Shown: positions 3,006 to 54,337 of the stretch, piece after piece
Position numbering within the stretch: position 1 is the stretch's first letter
Layout: each line of letters starts with the position of its first letter
From: Escherichia coli
Lineage (GTDB): Bacteria; Pseudomonadota; Gammaproteobacteria; Enterobacterales; Enterobacteriaceae
Reading direction: 5' to 3' (one strand)
Length of the DNA: 64,000 nt
NCBI RefSeq assembly: GCF_001677475.2
Contig: NZ_CP015229.1
Made by a program: the position numbers and the translations under genes
Notes under the pieces: generated by a model
The model's input: the letters and a program-made list of their open reading frames with translations, nothing else
Databases searched by the model: none
What the model was told of the DNA's origin: nothing

Positions 3006-3024
3006 TAGATAAATTTTAGGCAAC

Positions 3025-3103
3025 AAAAAACCCACCAACCTTGAACCGAAATGGCGGGGTTGATGGGCTCCACAAAATGGGGACATCAAAGAAAAGCAGT
3101 GGC
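3025..3103 (-). ncRNA. rybB: sigmaE-dependent small RNA RybB
   Basis: Reverse complement reads GCCACTGCTTTTCTTTGATGTCCCCATTTTGTGGAGCCCATCAACCCCGCCATTTCGGTTCAAGGTTGGTGGGTTTTTT, ending in a GC hairpin plus U-run; lies in the ybjK-ybjL intergenic where rybB is known to sit. Confidence 0.85.
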
Positions 3104-31327: not shown

Positions 31328-32227
31328 TTACGCAGAGAAAAGGGCGATCAGAATCGGCACTAACAGGCTAAGAATAAAACCGTGAACAATCGCCGCTGGA
31401 ACCATCTCCAGCCCGCCTGTACGTTGAAGAACGGGCAGGGTGAAATCCATCGACGTCGCACCGCATAAGCCCAGTGCGGTAGAGCGGCTGCGGCGAATCA
31501 GCCCAGGAATCAACATAATAGCAATCAGCTCACGGGCAAGATCATTAAAAAACGCCGCGCTCCCGATTACCGGGCCAAAAGATTCAGTCAACAAAATACC
31601 GGAAAGAGAATACCAGCCGAAACCGGAGGCCATTGCCAGCGCGGTATTGATGGGGAGATCAAGAATAAAGGCGTTAATTAAGCCACCAATTAAAGAACTG
31701 GCAACCACCACCACAGCGACAATCATTCCCCGGCGATTAAGGACAATCTGCTTTAAGGTCATGCCATTATTGCGTAGCTGAATACCGACGAGGAAAAGTA
31801 ACAGAATTAAGGTGTATTCGCTGGCTTCAGTGGCGTGTTGTAAGAAACCTAATCCGCTAAGGCCAATGGCAAAACCAATTACGACTACGCCGCACAGTTT
31901 TAGCGACTCCAGCGCCATCGCAATACGCGATGGGAGTTTTTCTTGCTGATGGTGATTGCGCCATGGCAGGCCTCGCTCCAGCCACATAAGGGCGGCAATA
32001 TTACACAGTAAAATAACGGTAATACTGACGGCAGAATAATGCAGAATCGCCAACAGGTTACTGGCGAGGTTATCGAGAAACGCCAGACTGATACCCATAA
32101 AAAAGAGAATAAGGTAAACCATCCAGCTTAATAGCTGATTAATAACTCTTAATGCAGCTTTTTGGCGAAGAGGAATGAGGTAACCCACAATCAGGGGAAC
32201 CAGAATGATTAACAGCCCAGAAAACAT
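31328..32227 (-). CDS. lysO: Lysine exporter LysO (YbjE)
   Basis: ORF trimmed to MFSGLLIILVPLIVGYLIPLRQ, 299 aa, polytopic membrane protein. Confidence 0.85.
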   Translation of the reverse strand: MFSGLLIILVPLIVGYLIPLRQKAALRVINQLLSWMVYLILFFMGISLAFLDNLASNLLAILHYSAVSITVILLCNIAALMWLERGLPWRNHHQQEKLPSRIAMALESLKLCGVVVIGFAIGLSGLGFLQHATEASEYTLILLLFLVGIQLRNNGMTLKQIVLNRRGMIVAVVVVASSLIGGLINAFILDLPINTALAMASGFGWYSLSGILLTESFGPVIGSAAFFNDLARELIAIMLIPGLIRRSRSTALGLCGATSMDFTLPVLQRTGGLEMVPAAIVHGFILSLLVPILIALFSA

Positions 32228-32402
32228 GAAAACCCAGTCCTTGCAAAGATGAAGTCGAAATGCGCGATGACACACTACTGAAAGCGGAAGGACGAGTAAA
32301 GTTGCAATTAAAAGGAAATGTTATGCATAAGGAGCAGTAGAGTATTCGTTTTCATTTAAAGATATTCTTGCGCTTTAATTACAAACCGCACCGGTGTTGG
32401 TG

Positions 32403-32533
32403 GCGTCAAAATCGCCGACCCGGTAGCCGTAAGGGATAAGCCGAGGGCACCGCGCAGCGGCGATTTTGTTCGCCAGAGCCCGGGGGGGCAGGGGCGGCGG
32501 CGATTGGCCGCCCCCTGCGCGCTCCCTGCGCCA
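32403..32533. repeat. GC-rich structured intergenic element with nested inverted repeats (unclassified)
   Basis: CAAAATCGCCG...CGGCGATTTTG (11-bp arms) and GCAGGGGCGGC...GCCGCCCCCTGC read directly; motif CGGCGATT recurs three times. Confidence 0.5.
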
Positions 32534-32590
32534 GTGACTATATGTGGCTTAACACATCAAGGAGCGCAACAGGAAGATGAATCAATATAT

Positions 32591-32621
32591 TTAAAAAAGG
32601 CCTGACATTGCGCCAGGCCTT
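32591..32621 (-). terminator. Intrinsic terminator of aqpZ
   Basis: Hairpin AAGGCCTGacattgcgCCAGGCCTT, followed on the minus strand by TTTTTTAA. Confidence 0.7.
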
Positions 32622-32630
32622 CTGCGTTAA

Positions 32631-33326
32631 TTAATTACGCTTTTCCAGCAGGGTCCGGTAAATCAGACCACCGATAATGCCGCCGACAATTGGCACCACC
32701 CAGAAGAACCACAGTTGTTCTAATGCCCAGCCGCCCTGGAAGATAGCAACCGCGGTGCTGCGCGCTGGGTTAACAGAAGTGTTAGTCACCGGAATACTGA
32801 TTAAGTGAATCAGGGTTAAGGCCAGACCAATAGCGATCGGCGCAAAACCTGCTGGAGCGAATTTGTCGGTTGCGCCGTGGATCACCAACAGGAAACCTGC
32901 ACTCAATACCAGTTCAACTACCAGCGCGGAAAGCATGGAATAACCGCCTGGTGAATGCTCGCCATAACCGTTAGAAGCAAAACCGCTGGCTGCCGCGTCA
33001 AAACCCGTTTTACCACTGGCAATTAAATACAGCAGCGCCGCTGCAACAATACCGCCGACAACCTGGGCAATTACGTAGCCAACGACTTCTTTTGCCGGGA
33101 AACGTCCGCCAGCCCATAAACCAATAGTGACCGCCGGGTTAAAATGACCACCAGAAATATGACCAACAGCGAAGGCCATCGTCAGAACGGTCAAACCAAA
33201 TGCCAGCGCCACGCCGGCAAAACCAATGCCTAATTCCGGGAAGCCTGCGGCCAGTACAGCACTACCACAGCCACCAAAAACAAGCCAGAAAGTACCAAAA
33301 CATTCAGCTGCTAATTTTCTGAACAT
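32631..33326 (-). CDS. aqpZ: Aquaporin Z
   Basis: [24 protein letters not shown]; two NPA motifs ([14 protein letters not shown]); 231 aa. Confidence 0.93.
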
Positions 33327-33751
33327 ATCCACCTCAATTAAAAATTGACCCTGTGAAAAATATGGTCGTTTTATAGGGTCGTCGTAAAAAAGTGACGACG
33401 GAAATAATGCGCGGCTATTTTAAAAACGAAGGCGAGTCATTCACCAGATAAATAAATCCAGTAAATTTGATTTAGGGCAACAGCGGGTTGTCCCATATAG
33501 TCATTTGTCTGATTGACAGTGTAGTGCAAGCGAAAGATTTAATCCTTTAGGCGTAATAAAAAATAATTTATCATGCTAATTATTTGATTTTGTTGTTTTT
33601 GCAGGCTTATCAGCAAGAGGGAGTATAACGCGATTATTCGCTCATTTTTCAGACATTTGCCATGCTTAAATGTGATGTCATCACGTATTAGCAAGGCCTT
33701 TCCCGTTATACTGCCAGCGTAAAGGATAAGTCACATATTTCTGGAGGGGAT

Positions 33752-35410
33752 ATGATTCTTGAGCGCGTTGAAATTGTGGGTTTTCGCGGTATCAACCGTT
33801 TGTCGTTGATGCTCGAACAAAACAACGTCCTGATTGGGGAGAACGCGTGGGGTAAATCCAGCTTGCTGGACGCCTTAACCCTGCTGCTATCGCCAGAATC
33901 AGATCTCTACCATTTTGAGCGCGACGATTTCTGGTTCCCGCCGGGAGATATCAACGGGCGAGAACATCATCTGCATATTATTTTGACCTTCCGCGAATCG
34001 CTGCCAGGCCGACATCGGGTTCGCCGCTATCGGCCGCTGGAAGCGTGCTGGACGCCATGCACCGATGGCTATCACCGTATTTTTTATCGTCTGGAAGGGG
34101 AGAGTGCGGAAGACGGCAGCGTGATGACACTGCGCAGTTTTCTCGATAAAGACGGACATCCGATTGATGTCGAGGATATTAACGATCAGGCACGCCATCT
34201 GGTGCGTTTAATGCCGGTGCTGCGCTTGCGTGATGCCCGTTTTATGCGTCGTATTCGTAACGGCACGGTGCCAAATGTCCCCAATGTGGAAGTCACCGCG
34301 CGCCAGCTCGATTTCCTCGCTCGTGAATTATCCTCACATCCGCAAAATCTCTCTGATGGACAGATTCGTCAGGGACTTTCCGCAATGGTACAGCTGCTTG
34401 AGCATTATTTCTCTGAGCAGGGGGCCGGACAGGCGCGATATCGTTTAATGCGGCGGCGGGCCAGCAATGAGCAACGAAGCTGGCGCTATCTGGATATCAT
34501 CAACCGGATGATTGACCGACCTGGAGGGCGCTCGTATCGGGTTATTTTGCTCGGCCTGTTTGCTACTTTATTGCAGGCAAAAGGCACATTGCGACTGGAT
34601 AAAGACGCCCGTCCATTGTTGCTGATTGAAGATCCAGAAACCCGTTTACACCCCATTATGCTTTCAGTTGCCTGGCATCTGTTGAATCTTCTGCCATTGC
34701 AGCGCATTGCCACCACCAACTCGGGTGAGTTGCTTTCGTTAACGCCGGTAGAGCATGTTTGCCGACTGGTACGTGAGTCCTCGCGCGTTGCCGCCTGGCG
34801 TCTGGGGCCGAGCGGCTTGAGTACCGAAGACAGCCGACGCATCTCTTTCCACATTCGTTTTAACCGTCCGTCATCGCTGTTTGCCCGTTGTTGGCTGCTG
34901 GTGGAAGGCGAAACGGAAACCTGGGTTATCAATGAACTGGCGCGTCAGTGCGGACATCATTTTGATGCCGAAGGGATCAAGGTCATTGAGTTTGCCCAGT
35001 CCGGGCTAAAGCCACTGGTTAAATTTGCCCGGCGAATGGGGATTGAATGGCATGTACTGGTCGATGGCGATGAAGCAGGGAAGAAATATGCTGCTACGGT
35101 ACGCAGCCTGTTGAATAACGATCGGGAAGCCGAACGAGAACATTTAACGGCGTTACCGGCGCTGGATATGGAACATTTTATGTATCGCCAGGGATTTTCC
35201 GATGTGTTCCACCGCGTGGCGCAAATCCCGGAAAATGTACCGATGAATCTGCGCAAAATTATCTCGAAAGCGATCCATCGCTCTTCCAAACCCGATCTTG
35301 CCATTGAAGTGGCAATGGAGGCCGGACGTCGTGGTGTGGACTCCGTACCGACGCTGCTGAAAAAAATGTTCTCACGCGTACTGTGGTTGGCGCGCGGTCG
35401 CGCGGATTAA
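33752..35410 (+). CDS. ybjD: OLD-family ATPase/TOPRIM nuclease homolog YbjD
   Basis: 552-aa ORF; Walker A GENAWGKSS near the N-terminus; recalled as OLD-family with a C-terminal Toprim region. Confidence 0.85.
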   Translation: MILERVEIVGFRGINRLSLMLEQNNVLIGENAWGKSSLLDALTLLLSPESDLYHFERDDFWFPPGDINGREHHLHIILTFRESLPGRHRVRRYRPLEACWTPCTDGYHRIFYRLEGESAEDGSVMTLRSFLDKDGHPIDVEDINDQARHLVRLMPVLRLRDARFMRRIRNGTVPNVPNVEVTARQLDFLARELSSHPQNLSDGQIRQGLSAMVQLLEHYFSEQGAGQARYRLMRRRASNEQRSWRYLDIINRMIDRPGGRSYRVILLGLFATLLQAKGTLRLDKDARPLLLIEDPETRLHPIMLSVAWHLLNLLPLQRIATTNSGELLSLTPVEHVCRLVRESSRVAAWRLGPSGLSTEDSRRISFHIRFNRPSSLFARCWLLVEGETETWVINELARQCGHHFDAEGIKVIEFAQSGLKPLVKFARRMGIEWHVLVDGDEAGKKYAATVRSLLNNDREAEREHLTALPALDMEHFMYRQGFSDVFHRVAQIPENVPMNLRKIISKAIHRSSKPDLAIEVAMEAGRRGVDSVPTLLKKMFSRVLWLARGRAD

Positions 35411-36399
35411 CCGCGAAACATCGTGGCCATTTGTGGCTGAATAGCGTCGAGCATCTCATAGCGCCGACGGTATTCAGCCCGTTTTTTACTGGCGATTTCG
35501 GCAATCTCTTTTCGTGCTATCTGTGCTGGAAGGCGGTAATGGCGTTCAGCATCACATACGCCGCCAACCGATTCCCAGAAAGCGTTGTAATCAGCGTGGA
35601 TCTTGCCTTCTTTATCGCGATAACGCAGGCTGCGGTAAATATGCGTTTCATTGCTGACGGCAATAATCTGCTCTACCTGCAAACGTTGGGCAAACAGACA
35701 GGCCGCTTCCATCACGAGGCGTTTGGGAAATAGCCCGTGGCAGGCTTTCGTCGCATTCTGGATTTCCTGATGTGGAATTTCCCATTTTGCGCCTTGCAGT
35801 CCGCCAATAAACATCGTTCTTTTCCCCTGATATTCACACAGGGTAAACGTGAGCTCTGCCAGAGGAATACCTTCGCTGTTGCGGAACAGGATTGTGCTGT
35901 CACCTTCTTTATCCATTGAGATCATCATGGTCAGCTCAAGCGTGAACTGCTCGCCGTTTTTGCCTTCCAGTTTAGCCAGTTGCAGCCCGGGGGTATTCAA
36001 ATATAAGCTGAATTCTTCCGCCGACATACACCCGCGGAGTAACGCATAATGGTAACGTAACGCCTCCAGCAATTGCTTACGGCTAAGATTCGCCGCAAGG
36101 TAAGGGCGATGCAGACGCACAGGCAGTCGCGGCTGGCGCGTTAACAACACATTGAGATTGGGCCAGTGGGAAAGTTCGTTCATCCACTCAACGCTTAAAC
36201 GCGGCATAATCAACGAGCGCAGCAAAAATTTCTGGCGAAAACTACGGCGATGCCAGAATTTACCCGGCCGACACTGTCCACGTGCCAGACTAAGAAAAAG
36301 TGAGAGGCTGCTGAGAGATTCAGATGACGTAAAGGTCCGTTCGGTTAGCTGCGACATATTCATGAAATCAATGGTTGTATATGACGTCGATTTCACCAT
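35407..36399 (-). CDS. ybjX: VirK/DUF535 family protein YbjX
   Basis: 330-aa ORF; 3' end overlaps the ybjD 3' end by 4 bp; exact start (36399 or 36357) uncertain. Confidence 0.8.
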   Translation of the reverse strand: MVKSTSYTTIDFMNMSQLTERTFTSSESLSSLSLFLSLARGQCRPGKFWHRRSFRQKFLLRSLIMPRLSVEWMNELSHWPNLNVLLTRQPRLPVRLHRPYLAANLSRKQLLEALRYHYALLRGCMSAEEFSLYLNTPGLQLAKLEGKNGEQFTLELTMMISMDKEGDSTILFRNSEGIPLAELTFTLCEYQGKRTMFIGGLQGAKWEIPHQEIQNATKACHGLFPKRLVMEAACLFAQRLQVEQIIAVSNETHIYRSLRYRDKEGKIHADYNAFWESVGGVCDAERHYRLPAQIARKEIAEIASKKRAEYRRRYEMLDAIQPQMATMFRG

Positions 36400-36513
36400 T
36401 GCGTATCTTAACCAAACATCAATAGTGTGATTACTAACGTAAATTTTAGGGTTTTGTTGATATTTCGTTGAAGTTAATGACCCGGATTGGCATATGGAGT
36501 ATTCAGAATATTT

Positions 36514-37629
36514 ATGAAAAAGCGGAAAACCGTGAAGAAGCGTTACGTTATTGCGCTGGTGATAGTCATCGCCGGGCTGATTACGTTATGGAGAATTCTT
36601 AACGCACCCGTGCCGACTTATCAGACGCTGATTGTGCGCCCCGGTGATTTACAGCAAAGCGTGCTGGCGACCGGAAAGCTGGACGCGCTGCGTAAGGTTG
36701 ATGTGGGCGCGCAGGTCAGCGGTCAGTTGAAAACGCTGTCGGTGGCGATTGGCGATAAAGTAAAAAAAGACCAGCTTTTAGGGGTTATTGATCCTGAACA
36801 GGCTGAAAACCAGATCAAGGAGGTCGAAGCAACGCTGATGGAGCTACGCGCGCAGCGGCAGCAGGCGGAAGCGGAGCTGAAACTGGCGCGGGTGACGTAT
36901 TCCCGTCAGCAACGTCTGGCACAAACGCAGGCGGTTTCACAGCAGGATCTCGACACCGCCGCGACGGAGATGGCTGTGAAACAGGCGCAAATTGGCACCA
37001 TTGACGCGCAAATCAAGCGCAATCAGGCTTCTCTCGATACGGCTAAAACCAATCTCGATTACACTCGCATCGTTGCCCCGATGGCCGGGGAAGTCACGCA
37101 AATCACCACTCTGCAAGGCCAGACGGTGATTGCCGCACAACAAGCACCGAACATTCTGACGCTGGCAGATATGAGCACCATGCTGGTAAAAGCGCAGGTT
37201 TCTGAAGCGGATGTAATCCACCTGAAGCCGGGGCAAAAAGCCTGGTTTACGGTACTAGGCGATCCGCTGACGCGCTACGAGGGGCAAATCAAGGATGTGC
37301 TACCGACGCCGGAAAAGGTTAACGACGCTATTTTCTATTACGCCCGTTTTGAAGTACCCAACCCCAATGGTTTGCTGCGGCTGGATATGACTGCGCAAGT
37401 GCATATTCAGCTCACCGATGTGAAAAATGTGCTGACGATCCCTCTGTCGGCGTTAGGCGATCCGGTTGGCGATAATCGTTATAAAGTCAAATTGTTGCGT
37501 AATGGTGAAACACGCGAGCGTGAAGTGACGATTGGCGCACGTAACGATACCGATGTTGAGATTGTCAAAGGGCTGGAAGCGGGCGATGAAGTGGTGATTG
37601 GTGAGGCCAAACCAGGAGCTGCACAATGA
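36514..37629 (+). CDS. macA: Macrolide efflux periplasmic adaptor MacA
   Basis: ORF trimmed to [23 protein letters not shown], 371 aa; coiled-coil adaptor. Confidence 0.9.
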
Positions 37630-39572
37630 CGCCTTTGCTCGAATTAAAGGATATTCGTCGCAGCTATCCTGCCGGTGATGAGCAGGTTGAGGTGCTGAAG
37701 GGCATCACCCTCGATATTTATGCGGGTGAGATGGTAGCGATTGTTGGCGCTTCGGGTTCCGGTAAATCGACCCTGATGAATATTCTCGGCTGTCTGGATA
37801 AGGCCACCAGCGGCACCTATCGCGTCGCCGGTCAGGATGTTGCCACGCTGGACGCCGATGCGCTGGCGCAACTGCGCCGCGAGCATTTCGGCTTTATTTT
37901 CCAGCGTTACCATTTGCTTTCGCATTTAACCGCCGAGCAGAACGTTGAAGTACCCGCCGTCTATGCCGGTCTTGAGCGGAAACAGCGGCTGCTTCGCGCC
38001 CAGGAGTTACTGCAACGACTGGGGCTGGAAGACCGTACAGAGTATTATCCGGCACAGCTTTCGGGCGGTCAGCAACAGCGCGTCAGCATCGCGCGGGCAT
38101 TGATGAACGGCGGTCAGGTAATTCTTGCCGATGAACCGACCGGCGCACTGGACAGCCATTCTGGCGAAGAGGTGATGGCGATCCTGCATCAGCTGCGCGA
38201 TCGCGGGCATACGGTGATTATCGTCACCCACGATCCGCAGGTCGCTGCTCAGGCTGAGCGGGTGATCGAAATTCGCGACGGCGAAATTGTGCGCAATCCT
38301 TCCGCCATTGAAAAAGTGAATGTTGCTGGCGGGACGGAACCTGTTGTCAACACGGCGTCTGGCTGGCGGCAGTTTGTCAGCGGTTTTAACGAGGCGCTGA
38401 CGATGGCATGGCGGGCGCTGGCAGCGAATAAAATGCGTACTTTACTGACCATGCTGGGTATTATTATCGGTATTGCGTCGGTGGTTTCCATTGTCGTGGT
38501 GGGTGACGCCGCCAAACAAATGGTGCTGGCGGATATTCGTTCTATTGGTACGAATACTATTGATGTCTATCCCGGGAAAGATTTTGGCGATGACGATCCG
38601 CAATATCAGCAGGCGCTGAAGTACGATGACTTAATCGCCATCCAAAAACAACCGTGGGTCGCCTCAGCCACACCTGCCGTCTCGCAAAACCTGCGCCTTC
38701 GTTATAACAATGTTGATGTTGCTGCCAGTGCCAATGGCGTGAGCGGCGATTATTTTAATGTCTATGGCATGACCTTCAGTGAAGGGAACACCTTTAATCA
38801 GGAGCAGCTGAACGGTCGTGCGCAGGTCATGGTTCTCGACAGTAATACTCGCCGCCAGCTTTTCCCCCATAAAGCAGATGTGGTTGGCGAGGTGATTCTG
38901 GTCGGCAATATGCCCGCCAGAGTCATTGGTGTGGCGGAAGAAAAACAGTCGATGTTTGGTAGCAGTAAAGTGCTGCGTGTCTGGCTACCTTACAGCACAA
39001 TGTCCGGGCGAGTTATGGGCCAGTCGTGGCTTAACTCCATTACTGTCAGGGTGAAAGAAGGATTTGACAGCGCCGAGGCGGAACAGCAACTCACGCGTTT
39101 ACTTTCACTGCGCCACGGAAAGAAGGATTTCTTTACCTGGAACATGGACGGCGTCTTGAAAACTGTTGAAAAGACCACACGTACTTTACAACTGTTTCTG
39201 ACGCTGGTGGCGGTGATTTCGCTGGTGGTGGGCGGTATTGGTGTAATGAATATTATGCTGGTGTCAGTGACCGAGCGGACGCGGGAAATTGGCATTCGCA
39301 TGGCTGTAGGTGCGCGAGCAAGCGATGTTTTGCAACAGTTCCTGATCGAAGCCGTACTGGTTTGCCTGGTCGGTGGCGCGTTGGGAATAACACTGTCACT
39401 GTTAATTGCTTTCACCTTGCAGCTTTTCTTACCCGGCTGGGAGATTGGTTTTTCACCGTTGGCGCTGCTGCTGGCGTTTCTCTGCTCGACGGTCACCGGG
39501 ATTTTATTTGGCTGGTTACCCGCACGAAATGCGGCACGACTGGATCCAGTAGATGCTCTGGCACGAGAGTAA
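37626..39572 (+). CDS. macB: Macrolide export ATP-binding/permease MacB
   Basis: 648-aa ORF; Walker [19 protein letters not shown]-terminal FtsX-like permease; 4-bp overlap with macA. Confidence 0.92.
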
Positions 39573-39583
39573 TTTTTGAGATA

Positions 39584-39612
39584 AAAATGCCAGCCGATCG
39601 GGCTGGCATTTT
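39584..39612. terminator. Bidirectional terminator between macB and cspD
   Basis: AAAATGCCAGCCgatcgGGCTGGCATTTT perfect hairpin flanked by A/T runs. Confidence 0.75.
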
Positions 39613-39644
39613 GCCTTTAGGATGTACACAATGAGACAGAAGAG

Positions 39645-39869
39645 CTATGCGACTGCCGCTTCTACTTCGACGGGCACAATAACACTGGCGTGATTGCCTT
39701 TTGGCCCCTGGTGGACATCAAACTGAACGGATTGTCCAGCTTTTAGCGTTCTGTAACCATCCATCTGAATGGTGGAATAATGAGCGAAAATATCTTCGCC
39801 GCCGCCTTCAGGGCAGATGAAACCAAACCCTTTGGCATTGTTGAACCACTTAACAGTACCCTTTTCCAT
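39645..39869 (-). CDS. cspD: Cold-shock-like protein CspD
   Basis: ORF trimmed to MEKGTVKWFNNAKGFGFICPEGGGEDIFAHYS (RNP1 motif), 74 aa. Confidence 0.92.
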   Translation of the reverse strand: MEKGTVKWFNNAKGFGFICPEGGGEDIFAHYSTIQMDGYRTLKAGQSVQFDVHQGPKGNHASVIVPVEVEAAVA

Positions 39870-40192
39870 GCTTCGACATCCTTCGCAAATCTTATACAAA
39901 TAAGATGGAATAAACCGGGGTCAGAGAGGGGGGCTGTTCAAAACCTCGCCAACTCTAGAAATACAATTTAGAGAATTAGGGCGAGCCGTCAAGCATTTGA
40001 CAGGGGGCAAGGGGCAGGTATGAATCAAAAATTTGAAGCAGTTAACGCTATTGACAGGAATGTGACAGATGTCGCTGATGCCAACGATAGATGATAGTTA
40101 TCTATCATGTGGAGTAGATTGGTCAGGCAAATAAGCTCTTGTCAGCGGCAGGGCGTTCTGCCGATAACCGTAACCGAAGATGATAACTGACA

Positions 40193-40513
40193 ATGGGTAA
40201 AACGAACGACTGGCTGGACTTTGATCAACTGGCGGAAGAAAAAGTTCGCGACGCGCTAAAACCGCCATCTATGTATAAAGTGATATTAGTCAATGATGAT
40301 TACACTCCGATGGAGTTTGTTATTGACGTGTTACAAAAATTCTTTTCTTATGATGTAGAACGTGCAACGCAATTGATGCTCGCTGTTCACTACCAGGGGA
40401 AGGCCATTTGCGGAGTCTTTACCGCCGAGGTTGCAGAAACCAAAGTGGCGATGGTGAACAAGTACGCGAGGGAGAATGAGCATCCATTGCTGTGTACGCT
40501 AGAAAAAGCCTGA
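40193..40513 (+). CDS. clpS: ClpA adaptor ClpS
   Basis: 106-aa [46 protein letters not shown]. Confidence 0.93.
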
Positions 40514-40543
40514 ATGCAGGCATAAAAATTGGGGGAGGTGCCT

Positions 40544-42820
40544 ATGCTCAATCAAGAACTGGAACTCAGTTTAAATATGGCTTTCGCCAGAGCGCGCGAG
40601 CACCGTCATGAGTTTATGACCGTCGAGCACTTGTTACTGGCGCTGCTCAGTAACCCATCTGCCCGGGAGGCGCTGGAAGCGTGTTCTGTGGATTTGGTTG
40701 CGCTCCGTCAGGAACTGGAAGCCTTTATTGAACAAACCACACCCGTTCTGCCTGCCAGTGAAGAGGAGCGCGACACACAGCCGACGCTGAGTTTTCAGCG
40801 TGTACTGCAACGTGCGGTCTTCCATGTCCAGTCCTCCGGTCGCAATGAAGTTACCGGTGCAAACGTTCTGGTCGCTATCTTTAGCGAACAGGAGTCGCAG
40901 GCGGCGTATCTGTTGCGCAAACATGAAGTCAGCCGTCTCGATGTGGTGAACTTTATTTCTCATGGCACGCGTAAAGACGAGCCATCTCAGTCTTCTGAAC
41001 CAGGAAACCAGCCGAGCAGTGAAGAACAAGCTGGTGGGGAGGACCGTATGGAGAATTTCACGACTAACCTGAACCAGCTTGCACGCGTGGGAGGAATCGA
41101 CCCGCTGATTGGTCGTGAGAAGGAACTGGAGCGCGCCATTCAGGTTCTCTGTCGCCGCCGTAAAAACAACCCGCTGCTGGTCGGGGAGTCTGGCGTCGGT
41201 AAAACCGCCATTGCGGAAGGTCTTGCCTGGCGTATTGTTCAGGGCGATGTGCCGGAAGTGATGGCTGACTGTACGATTTATTCTCTCGATATCGGTTCTC
41301 TGTTAGCGGGCACAAAATATCGCGGCGACTTTGAAAAACGTTTTAAAGCGTTGCTCAAGCAGCTGGAGCAGGACACTAACAGCATCCTGTTTATTGATGA
41401 GATCCACACCATTATCGGTGCGGGTGCAGCGTCTGGTGGTCAGGTCGATGCGGCTAACTTAATCAAACCGTTGCTCTCCAGCGGTAAAATTCGCGTAATT
41501 GGTTCGACAACCTATCAGGAGTTCAGCAACATTTTCGAGAAAGACCGTGCTCTGGCGCGTCGCTTCCAGAAAATTGATATTACTGAACCGTCAATCGAAG
41601 AAACTGTTCAAATCATCAATGGCCTGAAACCGAAGTATGAAGCGCACCACGACGTGCGTTATACCGCAAAAGCGGTGCGTGCGGCGGTAGAGCTGGCGGT
41701 GAAATACATCAATGATCGTCATCTGCCGGATAAAGCGATTGATGTTATCGACGAAGCGGGCGCTCGCGCACGCCTGATGCCGGTAAGCAAACGCAAGAAA
41801 ACCGTTAATGTGGCGGATATTGAGTCCGTGGTGGCCCGTATTGCACGCATTCCAGAGAAGAGTGTTTCTCAGAGTGACCGCGATACTCTGAAAAACCTCG
41901 GCGATCGCCTGAAAATGCTGGTCTTCGGTCAGGATAAAGCCATTGAGGCGCTGACTGAAGCCATTAAGATGGCGCGTGCAGGTTTAGGTCACGAACATAA
42001 ACCGGTCGGTTCGTTCCTGTTTGCCGGCCCTACCGGGGTCGGGAAAACAGAGGTGACAGTACAGCTTTCCAAAGCCCTGGGCATTGAGCTTTTACGCTTT
42101 GATATGTCCGAGTATATGGAGCGTCATACCGTCAGCCGCCTGATTGGTGCACCTCCGGGATACGTTGGTTTTGATCAGGGTGGTCTGCTGACCGATGCGG
42201 TGATCAAACATCCGCACGCGGTGCTGCTGCTGGACGAAATCGAGAAAGCGCATCCGGACGTATTCAACATTCTGTTGCAGGTGATGGACAACGGCACGCT
42301 GACCGATAACAACGGACGCAAGGCAGATTTCCGTAACGTGGTGCTGGTGATGACCACCAACGCCGGGGTACGTGAAACCGAGCGCAAATCTATTGGCCTT
42401 ATCCACCAGGATAACAGCACCGATGCGATGGAAGAGATCAAGAAGATCTTTACGCCAGAGTTCCGTAACCGTCTCGACAACATTATCTGGTTCGATCATT
42501 TGTCAACCGACGTAATCCATCAGGTGGTGGATAAATTCATCGTCGAGTTGCAGGTTCAGTTGGATCAAAAAGGCGTTTCTCTGGAAGTGAGTCAGGAAGC
42601 ACGTAACTGGCTGGCCGAGAAAGGTTACGACCGGGCAATGGGTGCACGTCCGATGGCTCGCGTCATTCAGGACAACCTGAAAAAACCGCTCGCTAACGAA
42701 CTGCTGTTTGGCTCGCTGGTGGACGGCGGCCAGGTCACCGTTGCACTGGATAAAGAGAAAAATGAGCTGACCTACGGGTTCCAGAGTGCGCAAAAGCACA
42801 AGGCGGAAGCAGCGCATTAA
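40544..42820 (+). CDS. clpA: ATP-dependent Clp protease ATPase subunit ClpA
   Basis: ORF trimmed to [24 protein letters not shown]; two AAA+ modules ([18 protein letters not shown]); 758 aa. Confidence 0.93.
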
Positions 42821-42843
42821 TCTGATTGTCAGGTAGGTTGGTC

Positions 42844-42884
42844 AAGTCCGTAATCTCGAAAGAGGTTGCGGACTTTTTATTTAT
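42844..42884 (+). terminator. Putative intrinsic terminator after clpA
   Basis: AAGTCCG...CGGACTT stem with a large loop, followed by TTTTTATTT. Confidence 0.45.
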
Positions 42885-43034
42885 GGGGTGGAACGGTGAA
42901 AACCCTATTTTTGGAGGTGAAGGTAAGTTGTTGATAATTAGTGCTGCTGGAAAAGGTAAGGATAAAAAAGGGTGACAGCAGGAAAATGAGATGGTTTTGC
43001 TTTATTAACAACGGGCTAAACGTGTAGTATTTGA

Positions 43035-43122
43035 GTTCACTGCCGTACAGGCAGCTTAGAAATTCACAGGTAACATACTCCACCCGCCCACCATGTTCAC
43101 TGCCGTACAGACAGATAAAATG
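43035..43122 (+). CRISPR. Orphan type I-F (Ypest-type) CRISPR mini-array: 2 repeats, 1 spacer, no cas genes
   Basis: Repeat 1 GTTCACTGCCGTACAGGCAGCTTAGAAA (43035-43062), 32-bp spacer TTCACAGGTAACATACTCCACCCGCCCACCAT, degenerate repeat 2 GTTCACTGCCGTACAGACAGATAAAATG (43095-43122); AT-rich leader-like region upstream. Confidence 0.8.
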
Positions 43123-43165
43123 CGAAAAAAAAGCTCGCACTTTCGTACGAGCTCTTCTTTAAATA

Positions 43166-43253
43166 TGGCGGTGAGGGGGGGATTCGAACCCCCGATACGT
43201 TGCCGTATACACACTTTCCAGGCGTGCTCCTTCAGCCACTCGGACACCTCACC
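43166..43253 (-). tRNA. serW: tRNA-Ser (anticodon GGA)
   Basis: Reverse complement GGTGAGGTGTCCGAGTGGCTGAAGGAGCACGCCTGGAAAGTGTGTATACGGCAACGTATCGGGGGTTCGAATCCCCCCCTCACCGCCA: long variable arm, GGA anticodon, 3' CCA. Confidence 0.92.
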
Positions 43254-43442
43254 AAATTGTTTTGTCGCCTGACCTCATGGGGGCAACGGGGCGCTACTAT
43301 AGGGAGTTGGAGTAAAACGGTCAAGAAGAATTTTAATGATAATTATTGTTTGCTCATACTGTAAACAAGTTGTGCAGTATATCTACATCGAGACAAGTTA
43401 TGGATTTATACTTCCAAAGTACTTCATACATATCACAAAATA

Positions 43443-43468
43443 AAAAGGTCGGCTAAACCGACCTTTTA
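43443..43468 (-). terminator. Intrinsic terminator of infA
   Basis: AAAAGGTCGGctaaaCCGACCTTTT hairpin with flanking A/T runs. Confidence 0.65.
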
Positions 43469-43505
43469 CTCGTTCTTTCTCTTCGCCCATCAGGCGGTAA
43501 AACAA

Positions 43506-43727
<222 letters not shown>

Positions 43728-44008
43728 ATCCTCTGGGGTATCACTACCGTAATTTGAACCGGCAAGATAATGCCGAAGTTCTGTAAATAAGTAAAGATTT
43801 GCGCGCTAAATCGCAACAAACAGGTTCGGCACATTACTCCGAAAACACACGGCTAAGCCGCACCAAAAGCGCAACGTATAAGGGAGCGGTGAGATAAACG
43901 ATGGGCGTTACCTGACGCGAAAAATTCCTTATCGGCAGCGGGGTAATGAGCGTAACCAACTCTGCGACCGCAATTATAACACTCTGGGGAGAAATGTGCC
44001 GAAAACAT

Positions 44009-44713
44009 TCATTCTTGTGGTGAAAACAAGCACCGTGGTACCCAGAAATTATTCGGCAATCGTCCGAGGCGCATTTGATTGAGATAATTGAGATAATCCC
44101 GGCGAGGAATTTCGCAGGCACCAAGCGACGCTGTGTGATCGTTAAGTACCTGGCAGTCGATAAGTTTACCGCCATGACCAATAAATTCCTCACAGAATAC
44201 CAGAAGCGCCGTTTTAGACGCATTTTCCATCCGGCTGAACATGGACTCGCCACAAAATAGCGTTCCCTGGGCCACGCCGTACATACCGCCGACAAGCTCA
44301 TCTTCACGCCAGACTTCAATAGAGTGGGCATGACCGAGTTCGTGAAGGCGATGGTAGGCTTCGACCACGCCACGCGTGATCCAGGTTCCTTCTTCGCGAT
44401 CGCTGGCACAGCCTTCAATGACCTGACCAAAAGCGTAATTCATCGTGACTCGATAGGGCGAGCGTTTATGAAATCGCTTCATACTACGGCTGATATGCAG
44501 TGATTCTGGCCATAGCACCGCGCGAGGATCGGGCGACCACCAGAGGATGGGGTCGCCTGGAGAAAACCACGGAAAAATACCACGCTGGTAAGCCATTAAC
44601 AGGCGCGCAGGGCTAAGATCGCCCCCCAGTGCCAGCAGGCCGTTAGGCTCACGTAATGCGCCTTCCGGGGAAGGGAAGGCTATTGAATGGCGAGAAAGCT
44701 GAACCAGGCGCAT
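44009..44713 (-). CDS. aat: Leucyl/phenylalanyl-tRNA-protein transferase
   Basis: 234-aa [38 protein letters not shown]. Confidence 0.9.
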
Positions 44714-44754
44714 GACCGCAAAACTCCACGCTAGTCGGATCGTTCAATAATAGC

Positions 44755-46476
44755 TTACAAACCCTGCTTAAACTGGTAATAACGCCCCTGTCTGGCAAGC
44801 AGTTCTGCGTGAGTACCTTGCTCAATAATTTGCCCGTTGTCCATCACTATTATTTTCTGGAAACGAGAGAGTCCGCGAAGTCGATGGGTGACCATTAACA
44901 CCGTTTTCTCATGCATCATTTCTGCAAGCAATTCAAGGATCTGACTTTCGGTTGTGGCATCTAAGCCTTCTGTAGGTTCATCCAGCAATACCAGCGGCGC
45001 ATCATGTAACAGCGCACGGGCGATAGCCAGACGGCGCAGTTCACCACCGGAGAGCTGGCGTCCGCCTTCACCTAACCAACTGTTGAGACCTGCATCCTCG
45101 AGCAGCTTCTCCAGACCAACGCGACGTAAGATCTCCGCCAGAGCCTCATCACTACTGCCAGGTGAGGCGAGTAACAGATTATCACGCAGCGTGGCGCTAA
45201 ACAGATGCACTCGCTGTGGCACAACGCTGATGGTCTGTCGTAGAGTCGCTTCATTCAGACTGGCTATGGGGCTATCGTTAAGCAAAATCTCGCCCTGTTG
45301 CGGGTCCCATGCGCGGGTCAGCAGTTGTAACAGTGTTGATTTGCCGCATCCGGTTCGCCCGAGAATCGCTATATGTTCCCCGGCGTTTACCTGAAGAGAA
45401 ATCCCTTTAAGTGCCTGTTGGGATTGCTCCGGATAAGTGAACTGAACATCCCGTAATGTCAGCGAAACGCGATCGGCAACACGAGTTTGGGTATCAGGGA
45501 AGGTGACCTCCGGTTTTTGATCCGTTAAATCAGTGATCCGAACGGCAGAGGCAATGACTTGCCCCAGATGCTGAAATGCACCCGTTACTGGTGCCAGTGC
45601 TTCAAACGCGGCTAACGCGCAGAAGACAAACAGGGCAATTAACGCGCCGGGTTGAGCATTGCCGCCAACGCCGCCAGACGCCATCCACAGCATCAGGATC
45701 ACCGCTAACGCGCCAATGAGCAGCATTATCGCTTGCGACAATGCGGTTAGTTCAGATTGACGGCGTTGCGCTTCCAGCCATTGAATTTCTGTATTCTCTA
45801 GTTGCGTGCGATAACGATCGCTGGCACCAAAAATGGTCAGCTCAGCTTGCCCTTGCAGCCAGGCCGTCAGTTGTTGGCGATACTGCCCGCGAAGATGAGT
45901 CAGATTTTGCCCGGTGCTTTTTCCCGCACGATAAAACAGCGGTGGCATCAGGAAAAGCGTCAGTAACATAATGCCGCCCAGCGTAAAGGCGAGGGTGAAA
46001 TCAAGGAAACTTAACCCGACTGTCACCACCATAATCACCACAAAAGCGCCCACCAGCGGCGAAATAACGCGCAGGTAAAGATGATCGAGCGTATCAACAT
46101 CCGCCACCACGCGGTTGAGCAATTCGCCCTGACGATAGCGCGCCAGTCCGGCAGGGGAGAGGGGTAGCAATTTGCTGAAGGTGTAAATGCGCAGATGCTG
46201 CAACACGCGGAAAGTCGCGTCGTGACTTACCAGACGTTCAAAATAACGCCCGGCAGTACGGGTGATTGCTGCGCCACGCACGCCCGCAGCGGGTAGCATG
46301 TAGTTGAAGCTGTACAGTCCGGCAACCCCCGCAATCGCTGAGGCGGAGAGGAACCAGCCCGAAAGTGTCAACAGACCGATACTGGCGAGCAGCGTGACAA
46401 TTGCCAGCACGATACCAAGACTTAACATCCATTTATGACGTTTATACAGTGCCAGATAGGGTAGCAAAGCGCGCAT
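44755..46476 (-). CDS. cydC: ABC exporter subunit CydC (glutathione/cysteine export, cytochrome bd assembly)
   Basis: 573-aa ORF; N-terminal TMD plus C-terminal NBD (GRTGCGKST, LSGGELRR). Confidence 0.9.
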   Translation of the reverse strand: MRALLPYLALYKRHKWMLSLGIVLAIVTLLASIGLLTLSGWFLSASAIAGVAGLYSFNYMLPAAGVRGAAITRTAGRYFERLVSHDATFRVLQHLRIYTFSKLLPLSPAGLARYRQGELLNRVVADVDTLDHLYLRVISPLVGAFVVIMVVTVGLSFLDFTLAFTLGGIMLLTLFLMPPLFYRAGKSTGQNLTHLRGQYRQQLTAWLQGQAELTIFGASDRYRTQLENTEIQWLEAQRRQSELTALSQAIMLLIGALAVILMLWMASGGVGGNAQPGALIALFVFCALAAFEALAPVTGAFQHLGQVIASAVRITDLTDQKPEVTFPDTQTRVADRVSLTLRDVQFTYPEQSQQALKGISLQVNAGEHIAILGRTGCGKSTLLQLLTRAWDPQQGEILLNDSPIASLNEATLRQTISVVPQRVHLFSATLRDNLLLASPGSSDEALAEILRRVGLEKLLEDAGLNSWLGEGGRQLSGGELRRLAIARALLHDAPLVLLDEPTEGLDATTESQILELLAEMMHEKTVLMVTHRLRGLSRFQKIIVMDNGQIIEQGTHAELLARQGRYYQFKQGL

Positions 46477-50409: not shown

Positions 50410-50425
50410 CTGTTAATCCATACAG
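50410..50425. promoter_or_regulatory. LexA box (CTGT-N8-ACAG) in the ftsK upstream region
   Basis: CTGTtaatccatACAG read directly; ftsK is recalled to have an SOS-inducible promoter. Confidence 0.55.
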
Positions 50426-53500: not shown

Positions 53501-54337
53501 GCGCTGCGCTGGTGTGTTAACGAGATGGAACGTCGGTATAAACTGATGTCTGCGCTGGGTGTGCGTAATCTGGCGGGTTATAACGAAAAAATTGCTGAAG
53601 CCGATCGCATGATGCGTCCGATTCCAGACCCGTACTGGAAGCCGGGTGACAGTATGGATGCCCAGCATCCGGTGCTGAAAAAGGAACCGTACATTGTGGT
53701 GTTGGTGGACGAATTTGCCGACCTGATGATGACGGTAGGTAAAAAAGTGGAAGAGCTGATAGCACGTCTGGCACAAAAAGCCCGTGCCGCGGGTATCCAT
53801 CTCGTACTGGCAACTCAGCGTCCATCGGTTGATGTTATTACTGGTCTGATTAAAGCGAATATTCCGACCCGTATCGCCTTTACCGTATCCAGTAAGATTG
53901 ACTCACGTACCATTCTTGATCAGGCTGGCGCGGAATCACTGCTGGGTATGGGGGATATGCTTTACTCTGGGCCGAACTCCACGTTGCCGGTACGTGTTCA
54001 TGGTGCTTTTGTTCGCGATCAGGAAGTTCATGCCGTGGTGCAGGACTGGAAAGCGCGTGGTCGCCCACAGTATGTTGATGGCATCACCTCCGACACTGAA
54101 AGCGAAGGTGGCGCGGGCGGTTTCGATGGTGCTGAAGAACTGGATCCGTTGTTCGATCAGGCGGTGCAGTTTGTTACTGAAAAACGCAAAGCGTCAATTT
54201 CTGGCGTACAGCGTCAGTTCCGCATTGGTTATAACCGTGCAGCGCGTATTATCGAACAGATGGAAGCGCAGGGGATTGTCAGCGAACAGGGGCACAACGG
54301 TAATCGTGAAGTGCTGGCCCCACCGCCGTTTGACTAA
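50504..54337 (+). CDS. ftsK: DNA translocase FtsK (1277 aa here; shorter PQ-rich linker than the ~1329 aa recalled for K-12)
   Basis: TTG start [12 protein letters not shown]-terminal membrane domain, long Pro/Gln-rich linker, C-terminal motor (GTTGSGKS) and winged-helix gamma domain. Confidence 0.92.

Follow-up and report, generated by a model that had tools for sequence, protein, structure and literature searches.

Introduction

OLD nucleases are now taken almost automatically for anti-phage genes. The founding member of Class 1, P2 Old, is a phage-borne single-gene ATPase-Toprim protein that depends on both its ATPase and its nuclease residues and kills recBC cells. The structural archetype of this class is the enzyme from Thermus scotoductus (Ts OLD, PDB 6P74), in which a four-helix dimerization domain is inserted within the ATPase (PMC7049728). 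Class 1 structures have a shorter C-terminal region that lacks the helical domain of Class 2 and carries a catalytic arginine or lysine in a loop, and an asparagine in place of the H-loop histidine is a recognized variant among them (PMC7049728). GajA of the Gabija system (PDB 8SM3, 8U7I and others) belongs to Class 2, which published OLD trees nest inside Class 1 (PMC12796447); in PARIS, the ATPase (AriA) and the Toprim protein (AriB) are encoded by separate genes. An archaeal precedent for an OLD clade that is inherited vertically and has a role outside defence is Cran1, an essential OLD ATPase of the Sulfolobales that functions in the cell cycle (PMC12796447).

In Escherichia coli, YbjD served in 2019 as the query by which OLDs of Class 1 and of Class 2 were defined, and it was itself placed in Class 1 on the basis of its genetic context (PMC6755086). 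A paper in MicroPubl Biol of May 2026 gave the gene the name oldB and described phenotypes (PMC13261556). A knockout strain behaved like the wild type when challenged with 68 BASEL phages. Induced ybjD, at an inducer level that was not itself toxic, reduced the plating of Bas18 and Bas20 and made the plaques of Bas64-68 smaller; these anti-phage effects were weak, and the Toprim domain with its three acidic residues was dispensable for them. Furthermore, a K35A exchange raised the toxicity of YbjD, and toxicity was independent of RecBC (PMC13261556). A repair, growth or cell-cycle phenotype is not on record for the non-essential ybjD gene, and literature searches for DUF2813 and b0876 turned up nothing past the 2019 paper (PMC6755086).

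Results

The ybjD gene and the fold of its product

The window, a stretch of 64,000 nucleotides of E. coli DNA, is 97.5-98.7% identical to the best matching complete E. coli genome, which places its source in a slightly diverged lineage of the Escherichia/Shigella type, and contains, just as the earlier note had claimed, an ATG-start open reading frame for 552 amino acids with the Walker A motif GENAWGKSS (Table 1). The encoded protein is 100% identical to a common E. coli allele of YbjD. RefSeq labels the gene 'ATP-dependent endonuclease' and annotates aqpZ and ybjX as its flanks, so that gene and surroundings are those of the previously described ybjD/oldB (PMC13261556; PMC6755086). Two Pfam models match, DUF2813 (E 2e-160) and OLD-like_TOPRIM (E 4e-16), and judged by these scores the reading frame is not due to chance.

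The assignment to the OLD family made in the earlier note holds, as domain models, profile matches and the AF2 model all agree on it. Profile searches retrieved Ts OLD (6p74, 2e-21) and GajA (1e-19). Among the PADLOC models, a GajA sub-family scored best (7e-80), followed by Old (2e-24), and the AriA model covered residues 1-51 only. The AF2 model (pLDDT 88.8, pTM 0.87) agrees in its overall fold with solved OLD proteins, and its top structural matches are GajA, in first place, Ts OLD and the retron Eco8 OLD.

[quoted passage not shown] The fusion in one reading frame distinguishes it from PARIS, and despite the matching GajA models it differs from Gabija in lacking a GajB/UvrD-like helicase and in being vertically inherited outside defence islands. 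No retron or other RNA family was found at the locus. Sequence identity to Ts OLD amounts to about 21% and to P2 Old to 28% over 190 residues. P2 Old and YbjD are alike in their single-gene ATPase-Toprim organization, in a D-x-E pattern, in YbjD putatively for metal B, and in a lysine that follows it, but YbjD does not share the phage-borne location of P2 Old, its need for both sets of catalytic residues or its killing of recBC cells. The C-terminal region of YbjD looks more Class 2-like when judged against Bp OLD. In the AF2 model, the final Toprim strand is followed by four helices (473-547), of which helix 513-527 opens with K513, and 164 residues superpose on the C-terminal region of Class 2 Bp OLD at 2.3 Å. 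Ts OLD, by comparison, has a loop arginine, R487, where YbjD has the invariant helical K513.

Table 1. Coordinates of ybjD, its motifs and adjoining elements within the window
Feature	Position	Strand	Remarks
Candidate ybjD promoter, -10-like hexamer TATACT	33707..33712	+	Context CG-[C/T]TATACT; about 40 nt 5' of ATG
Shine-Dalgarno GGAGG	33743..33747	+	Kept in upstream alignment
ybjD (oldB) CDS	33752..35410	+	Solitary OLD-family ABC-ATPase/Toprim nuclease, 552 aa
Walker A/P-loop G29-E-N-A-W-G-K35-S-S37	33836..33862	+	Residues 29-37; from sequence
Helical insertion, residues 177-277	34280..34582	+	Four helices (AF2); putative counterpart of OLD dimerization domain
Walker B and D-loop L289-LLIEDPETRLH300-P301	34616..34654	+	Acidic Walker B residue is E293; also E296 and H300
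H-loop position T321-T-N323-S324	34712..34723	+	Asn in place of the His of GajA and Ts OLD
Toprim core, residues 376-470	34877..35161	+	Pfam OLD-like_TOPRIM; AF2
E385-G-E-T-E389	34904..34918	+	Metal A Glu and candidate metal B Glu; all invariant in 63 relatives
Toprim DxD, D438-G-D440	35063..35071	+	Metal A; aligns with Ts OLD D431/D433
D472-M-E474	35165..35173	+	Candidate metal B ligands; 62/63 and 63/63
K513	35288..35290	+	Candidate transition-state lysine; 63/63, followed by invariant P514
TTAA common to both stops	35407..35410		ybjD TAA 35408-35410; ybjX TAA 35407-35409 (minus)
ybjX (VirK/DUF535)	35407..36399	-	Convergent neighbour outside the ybjD unit; Pfam DUF535 E 2e-102

The nuclease site is conserved more strictly than the ATPase

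Residue conservation was assessed in a set of 63 YbjD relatives with 28-54% identity. The acidic residues of the Toprim domain, on which the earlier note had made its proposal depend, are present: E385, E387, E389, D440 and E474 are invariant, as is K513, and D438 and D472 are each retained in 62 of the 63 proteins. All seven catalytic positions (E385, E389, D438, D440, D472, E474, K513) are intact in 61 relatives. The block 376-445 is the most conserved stretch of the entire protein (mean column identity 0.73), and the AF2 model places the parallel strands of the Toprim core at residues 380-384, 409-413, 432-437 and 465-467. E385 and E389 align in the profile alignment with E377 and D381 of Ts OLD, the roles of which were taken from the literature (PMC7049728). 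Both phmmer and profile alignments to solved OLD structures end around residue 443, just past the DxD motif. Further downstream, the strict conservation of D472 and E474 and the resemblance to the D-x-E pattern formed by D541 and E543 in P2 Old suggest that these two residues are ligands of metal B; Ts OLD has S478 in place of D472. By analogy to K562 in the C-terminal helical domain of Bp OLD, K513 may act as the transition-state lysine.

The N-terminal ABC-type ATPase of YbjD conforms to the Walker A pattern GxxxxGK[ST]. Among the relatives, G29 and G34 are each present in 62, E30 in all 63 and K35 in 56 (arginine in six, serine in one). The Walker B region aligns with IIEEPEMYLHP of Ts OLD and LIEEPEISLH of GajA, and E293, E296 and H300 are found in 57, 59 and 62 of the 63 proteins, respectively. 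Position 323 of the H-loop is variable (N 37, Q 10, H 10, Y 5). The least conserved part of YbjD is the insertion 177-277 (mean column identity 0.31), for which helices 177-195, 202-221, 241-255 and 259-277 are modeled. In total, 12 of the 63 relatives lack a canonical ATPase residue (Walker A lysine replaced by arginine or serine, or a change at Walker B E293, E296 or H300), and the nuclease site is intact in every one of these 12.

The upstream region

An alignment across genera of 25 Enterobacteriaceae upstream regions revealed the hexamer TATACT as the sole conserved block upstream of the gene. In most genera, it is directly preceded by a C, a feature that we take to be sigma-S promoter-like. 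A conserved -35 element was absent from the 25 aligned regions, and a simple sigma-70 scan 5' of ybjD called no promoter, TATACT included. SOS control of ybjD was considered and dismissed, as the aqpZ-ybjD intergenic region contains no LexA-box-like site. Likewise, the palindrome GTGATGtCATCAC (33672-33684) was rejected as an operator, since it is confined to Escherichia, imperfect in E. albertii and missing elsewhere.

ybjD is an old core gene of the Enterobacterales

Complete E. coli genomes nearly all have ybjD, which RefSeq annotates with an intact reading frame in 5424 out of 5426, and the slot hcp-lysO-(aqpZ)-ybjD-(ybjX)-macAB is constant from Escherichia to Serratia, Hafnia and Pectobacterium. 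YbjD diverges in a clock-like manner: its distance matrix correlates with those of Hcp, MacB and LysO with r values of 0.89-0.92, which compares with 0.81-0.89 for these proteins among themselves, and its mean divergence of 0.18 equals that of MacB and of LysO. The dN/dS ratio lies between 0.014 and 0.03, equal to or below that of the neighbours, and is lowest for residues 376-552 (0.006-0.008 in close pairs). Relatives occur beyond the Enterobacterales in Vibrio, Aeromonas, Pasteurellaceae and others, and the eight distant ones that we sampled are encoded alone amid housekeeping genes.

A YbjD-type gene was not found in 50,697 phage records. Full-length matches of at least 40% in a plasmid collection resided on chromids, second chromosomes or megabase records, with five exceptions, namely four E. 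coli records of 42-88 kb (99.6-99.8%) and one Serratia record of 145 kb. All five also contain ybjX and are probably chromosomal DNA. A phage- or plasmid-borne ybjD was therefore discarded as a possibility. None of the population hallmarks of defence genes, that is, patchiness, horizontal transfer and location in defence islands or on mobile elements, was observed. The gene is thus an old, vertically inherited, chromosomal core gene of the Enterobacterales under strong purifying selection, and the earlier note was right to describe it as a core gene rather than an islet.

A partner gene in other genomes, which had also been envisaged, did not emerge: no gene beside ybjD behaves as a conserved partner, ybjX is often missing, and a helicase gene was found neither beside ybjD in 80 Enterobacterales loci nor beside the eight distant relatives. 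In view of the PADLOC match to GajA, a hidden GajB-type helicase near the distant DUF2813 relatives was considered specifically and rejected (none in eight contexts).

ybjX and the convergent 3' ends

The 4-bp overlap between the 3' ends of ybjD and the convergent ybjX is real, with TTAA contributing to both stop codons. RefSeq places the ybjX start at 36363, yielding a protein of 318 amino acids. Among 58 Enterobacterales loci with ybjX, 45 show the same stop-stop arrangement. An RNA-seq listing includes the gene pair as a convergent 'excludon' (PMC12288877), and a terminator-like site was not found between the two genes. In 20 of 81 loci (Klebsiella, Raoultella, Pectobacterium, Brenneria, Mangrovibacter and others), ybjX was undetected beside ybjD, and in 12 of these ybjD runs into macA across a gap of 20-157 bp. 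Outside Escherichia, YbjX proteins are 44-74% identical, compared with 64-91% for YbjD, and the dN/dS of YbjX is 2-5 times that of YbjD. A DUF535 neighbour was not encountered in the eight sampled contexts of more distant YbjD relatives, and YbjX matched none of the PADLOC and NCBIfam models. In light of its patchy presence, its faster divergence and its absence beside distant relatives, ybjX was rejected as a partner of ybjD; as far as can be read from these comparisons, the convergence shows no sign of functional coupling.

Discussion

We consider it probable, at roughly 0.8, that YbjD is a solitary OLD enzyme with an intact two-metal Toprim site, that its native role is housekeeping-like and calls for the nuclease, and that ybjX is a mere neighbour. 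As the Toprim residues are complete in 61 of 63 relatives while ATPase residues have been lost in 12, the nuclease appears to matter natively, an importance that overexpression assays would miss. The Toprim-independent anti-phage phenotypes sit uneasily beside a nuclease-centred mechanism, and are probably a weak side effect of the ATPase/DNA-binding head. YbjD would act as a homodimer, as Thermus OLD does, and its Toprim site would cut nucleic acid, either by nicking and exonucleolytic degradation of DNA in the manner of Ts, Vc and P2 OLD, or by cleavage of tRNA, a reaction lately demonstrated for P2 Old. Because the K35A variant is hyper-toxic (PMC13261556) and GajA is inhibited by ATP, nucleotide binding at the ABC head may restrain rather than power this activity. 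Constitutive surveillance or maintenance of cellular nucleic acids would be a likelier native task than that of a typical mobile anti-phage system.

The main alternative, which we regard as rather unlikely, is that YbjD is a dedicated single-gene anti-phage system of Class 1, similar to P2 Old or V. cholerae OLD, that senses infection and responds by nicking phage DNA or with death or arrest of the cell. Relatives in the family are defensive, as reflected in the PADLOC matches to GajA and Old and in the structural neighbours GajA and retron Eco8 OLD; induced YbjD does affect Bas18, Bas20 and Bas64-68 at a non-toxic level (PMC13261556), and the toxicity of K35A would suit an ATP-restrained effector like GajA. 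However, loss of the gene is without consequence for any of the 68 phages, which proponents of a defence function would have to ascribe to low native expression or an unsuitable phage panel, and the effect of overexpression does not require the Toprim domain. Unlike that of P2 Old, toxicity does not depend on RecBC. Near-universal presence in E. coli, synteny fixed across an order, clock-like change, a dN/dS of 0.014-0.03 and the lack of copies on phages or mobile plasmids also speak against it, although vertical inheritance and low dN/dS may be compatible with a conserved immune sensor.

Two further explanations fare considerably worse. A functional pair of ybjD and ybjX, whether as a system of two genes or through mutually exclusive regulation via the overlapping 3' ends, would find a basis in the conserved stop-stop overlap, the excludon listing and the missing terminator, but is highly improbable given that ybjD persists in 20 of 81 loci without detectable ybjX, that YbjX is both less conserved and under weaker constraint, and that it has neither a counterpart beside distant relatives nor a match among the PADLOC and NCBIfam models; an obligate partnership appears already largely refuted by these data. 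Still harder to defend is the notion of an orphaned or decaying GajA, left without its GajB helicase and surviving as a functionless remnant. GajA is indeed the best PADLOC model and the top structural match, the C-terminal region matches Class 2 Bp OLD over 164 residues, and in published trees Class 2 branches from inside Class 1. Decay is nonetheless excluded by purifying selection across the whole protein, by the catalytic residues kept in the 63 relatives and by the intact reading frame in 5424 genomes, and dN/dS already refutes 'functionless'. Since no sampled relative has a helicase neighbour, any loss of GajB would be older than the entire clade.

Starting from a solitary enzyme with a housekeeping-like role, we tentatively go one step further, to a proposal that we put forward as a possibility short of an even chance: the DUF2813/YbjD clade may be a domesticated gammaproteobacterial OLD nuclease and not an immune gene, with a conserved task in the cell that would make it the bacterial equivalent of Cran1; its Toprim nuclease would act on a host substrate, in an enzyme in which the ABC head serves as a nucleotide-gated clamp and the anti-phage effect is incidental. 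Both proteins are conserved throughout an order and vertically inherited, and in both the overexpression phenotype needs the ATPase and not the nuclease (PMC12796447; PMC13261556). Cran1 differs in being an essential archaeal protein of a separate clade; YbjD can be dispensed with in the laboratory, and its nuclease residues are kept more strictly than those of its ATPase. A candidate job would be the processing of DNA or RNA intermediates, perhaps in stationary phase, a suggestion made because the -10 element is sigma-S-like.

Almost all E. coli, Salmonella and Klebsiella have YbjD as their OLD copy, and it evolves unlike a defence gene, with a fixed position, clock-like change and strong constraint that peaks at the nuclease site. 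Natively, YbjD would either carry out a nucleic-acid transaction new to the housekeeping of the best-studied bacterium or be an immune sensor of unusual age that is not mobile, and either outcome would sharpen the interpretation of 'defence' homologues in core genomes.

With regard to prior knowledge, the finding is a correct identification of a gene already in the literature. The earlier note had rated its novelty as modest, which is right and, if anything, generous, as the OLD assignment has been in print since at least 2019 (PMC6755086). Its statement that the role of YbjD is uncharacterized no longer holds in full, as phage phenotypes have been reported (PMC13261556). The additions made here concern distribution, synteny, divergence, absence from phages, the patchiness of ybjX and residue conservation in 63 relatives. 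Elsewhere in the literature, the name ybjD appears for strain-construction sites, in one expression table and for a different, uvrD-linked gene of SGI1.

Locus and published record of ybjD

The earlier note had read ybjD as an OLD-family gene of the chromosomal core that converges on a VirK-like gene. Its open reading frame, the Walker A motif and the 4-bp overlap with ybjX were all recovered in the window (see the table). RefSeq gives the two genes the same names, with ybjD annotated as 'ATP-dependent endonuclease', and the pair is flanked by hcp, lysO and aqpZ on one side and by macA, macB, cspD, clpS and clpA on the other. Core status was likewise borne out: of 5426 complete E. coli genomes, 5424 carry the ybjD segment with 97-99% identity, and the gene occupies the same slot across Enterobacterales. 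Window DNA at 25000-45000 reaches just 97.5-98.7% identity to the closest of these 5,426 genomes, while its YbjD protein is 100% identical to a common E. coli allele.

YbjD served in 2019 as the query for collecting OLD homologues, when Class 1 (solitary) and Class 2 (helicase-linked) were defined (PMC6755086), and in May 2026 Atahualpa et al. reported that ybjD is expressed and proposed the name oldB (PMC13261556). The finding is therefore the correct recognition of an already published gene, and its remaining value lies in the native function. The common name can mislead: in papers on Salmonella genomic island 1 (SGI1 backbone S023/S024, PMC9035990), 'ybjD' denotes a different gene from chromosomal ybjD, one that is linked to uvrD, lies on a mobile island and encodes a Gabija-like endonuclease.

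Features in the window
Feature	Position	Strand	Remark
RybB small RNA	3022-3100	-	Rfam gathering-level match
naRNA4 (CssrE) small RNA	15620-15700	+	Rfam gathering-level match
Palindrome GTGATGtCATCAC	33672-33684		6-1-6; aqpZ-ybjD intergenic region
CG-(C/T)TATACT	33705-33712		sole conserved upstream block, ~40 nt 5' of ybjD ATG; cross-genus alignment
ybjD ORF	33752-35410	+	552 codons, ATG start
Walker A GENAWGKSS	33836-33862	+	residues 29-37 of YbjD
ybjX ORF	35407-36399	-	DUF535/VirK, Pfam E 2e-102
TTAA palindrome	35407-35410		common to ybjD and ybjX stops; 4-bp 3' overlap
ORF at clpA position	40529-42820
Two type I-F CRISPR repeats	43035-43122		Rfam CRISPR-DR4 match 43035-43062; second copy from 43095
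tRNA	43169-43253	-
Palindrome CTGTTAATCCATACAG	50410-50425		perfect, LexA-box-like
ORF at ftsK position	50504-54337	+	1277 codons
STnc130 small RNA	57852-57986	-	Rfam gathering-level match

Fold, class and catalytic residues

YbjD, the product of a solitary core gene, has an OLD fold with an ABC head and an intact Toprim site under strong constraint, putatively of the two-metal type. Pfam DUF2813 spans residues 1-375 (E 2e-160) and OLD-like_TOPRIM residues 376-440 (E 4e-16), and the N-terminus is also matched by generic ABC/SMC-type P-loop models. With PADLOC, many sub-models of the Gabija nuclease GajA (best 7e-80) and the Old model (2e-24) were retrieved, while the AriA model covers the first 51 residues only; no NCBIfam equivalog was found for YbjD. 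The three parts expected of an OLD protein are all predicted by the structure model: the ABC head, an insertion of four helices (177-277), and a Toprim sheet with another four helices C-terminal to it. Domain matches and model together support the family assignment. The dimerisation domain of the Class 1 protein Ts OLD (Thermus scotoductus, PDB 6P74) lies at the same place as the insertion, and by analogy YbjD may form a homodimer through it. By genomic context YbjD is a Class 1 OLD. In the model, its C-terminal region includes a helical extension with the invariant lysine, and superposition of this region on that of a Class 2 OLD is good. Published trees that place Class 2 OLDs inside Class 1 agree with this (PMC12796447).

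Conservation was assessed in an alignment of YbjD with 62 full-length relatives (28-54% identity), drawn from an exhaustive search that gave 335 50%-identity clusters at E < 1e-30. Mean column identity across the 63 sequences is highest in the Toprim block (0.73), compared with 0.54 in the ATPase ends and 0.31 in the helical insert. E385, E387, E389, D440, E474 and K513 are invariant, and D438 and D472 are each kept in 62 of 63. The objection on which the earlier note had made the OLD reading depend, missing Toprim acidic residues, therefore clearly fails. Because sequence alignments to solved structures end at the DxD, D472-x-E474 and K513 are putatively assigned by pattern, matching D541/E543/K550 of P2 Old and T506/E508/K562 of the Class 2 protein Bp OLD. 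The ATPase residues K35, E293, E296 and H300 are well conserved in the same alignment without being invariant, and the H-loop position is occupied by Asn, a known Class 1 variant (PMC7049728). A canonical ATPase residue is lost in 12 of the 63 (e.g., the Walker A K replaced by R or S), and all seven nuclease residues are retained in each of these 12.

Neighbourhood and inheritance

The stop-stop overlap is kept in 45 of 58 loci carrying ybjX, and RNA-seq work has catalogued the pair as a convergent 'excludon' (PMC12288877). A search for a partner gene in other genomes, as proposed in the earlier note, came out negative: ybjX was undetected beside ybjD in 20 of 81 loci (in 12 of these ybjD lies 20-157 bp from macA), and no UvrD-like helicase was found beside eight distant relatives. 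Identity outside Escherichia is just 44-74% for YbjX compared with 64-91% for YbjD, and the dN/dS of ybjX is several-fold higher. On these grounds ybjX was rejected as a partner and is a neighbour; local antisense interference in Escherichia is possible. The ybjX gene is seemingly cleanly lost in Klebsiella, Raoultella, Trabulsiella, some Enterobacter, a Cedecea and a Serratia (loci including L016, L019, L024, L028, L030, L032, L042, L048, L049, L059 and L081), and aqpZ is likewise missing from the locus in Serratia, Pectobacterium, Brenneria and Hafnia.

When one genome per species was scanned, the best 80 loci, all from Enterobacterales, had the constant order hcp-lysO-(aqpZ)-ybjD-(ybjX)-macAB, from Escherichia, Citrobacter, Klebsiella and Enterobacter to Serratia, Hafnia, Pectobacterium and Brenneria. 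From pair to pair, YbjD distances track those of the housekeeping proteins Hcp, MacB and LysO (correlation r 0.89-0.92, Mantel p 0.001), which correlate among themselves at r 0.81-0.89, and mean YbjD divergence (0.18) equals that of MacB and LysO. The dN/dS of ybjD (0.014-0.03) is at or below that of neighbouring genes and falls to 0.006-0.008 over residues 376-552 when close pairs are compared. Among 50,697 phage records no YbjD-type gene was found; P2 Old came closest (28% over 190 residues). In the plasmid collection, full-length matches of at least 40% lie on chromids, second chromosomes and megabase records, cleanly separated from matches of at most 29% to other OLDs. The five exceptions (four E. 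coli records of 42-88 kb and one Serratia record of 145 kb) also carry ybjX, and we take them to be chromosomal DNA.

Relatives occur in Yersinia, Proteus, Aeromonas, Vibrio, Photobacterium, Salinivibrio, Tatumella, Motilimonas and one Pasteurellaceae species; eight distant relatives that were examined are solitary among housekeeping genes (thiL-pgpA/dxs, cysS/nrdAB, recQ...spoT, a SulP transporter, etc.). Some DUF2813-type OLDs (P0149, P0162-P0166 and P0175; loci L092-L094) are 800-1900 aa long, with an insertion of several hundred residues between Walker A and the remaining ATPase head and with a long extension at the C-terminus; these may represent a coiled-coil variant of the Rad50/SMC type. 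In one case a polA-like gene is found two genes away.

Possible function of YbjD

The Keio ybjD knockout equals the wild type in plating of 68 BASEL phages. Upon arabinose induction of ybjD, Bas18 and Bas20 plate less well and the plaques of Bas64-68 are smaller. These effects need the ATPase domain but persist when the three acidic residues of the Toprim domain, or that domain as a whole, are lost; K35A retains the effects and is more toxic, and YbjD toxicity is RecBC-independent, unlike that of P2 Old (PMC13261556). To judge from the evolutionary record, the nuclease is the part of YbjD under most selection, yet the sole phenotype available is Toprim-independent. We therefore read the anti-phage effect of overexpression as a by-product of the ATPase/DNA-binding head, the native role being still unseen. 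A classical defence role is less likely and hard to reconcile with the population genetics. For a function outside defence, the family offers a direct precedent in archaeal Cran1, a Sulfolobales OLD-family ATPase whose clade is vertically inherited within one order and whose overexpression phenotype needs the ATPase, not the nuclease (PMC12796447). The Toprim site of YbjD would cleave nucleic acid, and nucleotide binding may hold the activity back instead of driving it, because K35A is hyper-toxic, Walker A variants occur naturally in the clade and GajA is inhibited by ATP.

Upstream region and other features of the window

No LexA-type box was found upstream of ybjD. The cross-genus alignment revealed a GGAGG ribosome-binding site and a single conserved block, whose TATACT with preceding C resembles, in our estimation, sigma-S-type -10 elements. 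The intergenic palindrome is restricted to Escherichia, being imperfect in E. albertii and absent from other genera.

The CRISPR repeats, spaced by 60 nt, form an orphan one-spacer array between the clpA-position ORF and the tRNA, with no cas genes nearby; presumably this is the clpA-infA I-F CRISPR remnant of E. coli. The LexA-box-like palindrome lies ~80 nt upstream of the ORF at the ftsK position and is, we assume, probably the known SOS-inducible dinH/ftsK promoter.
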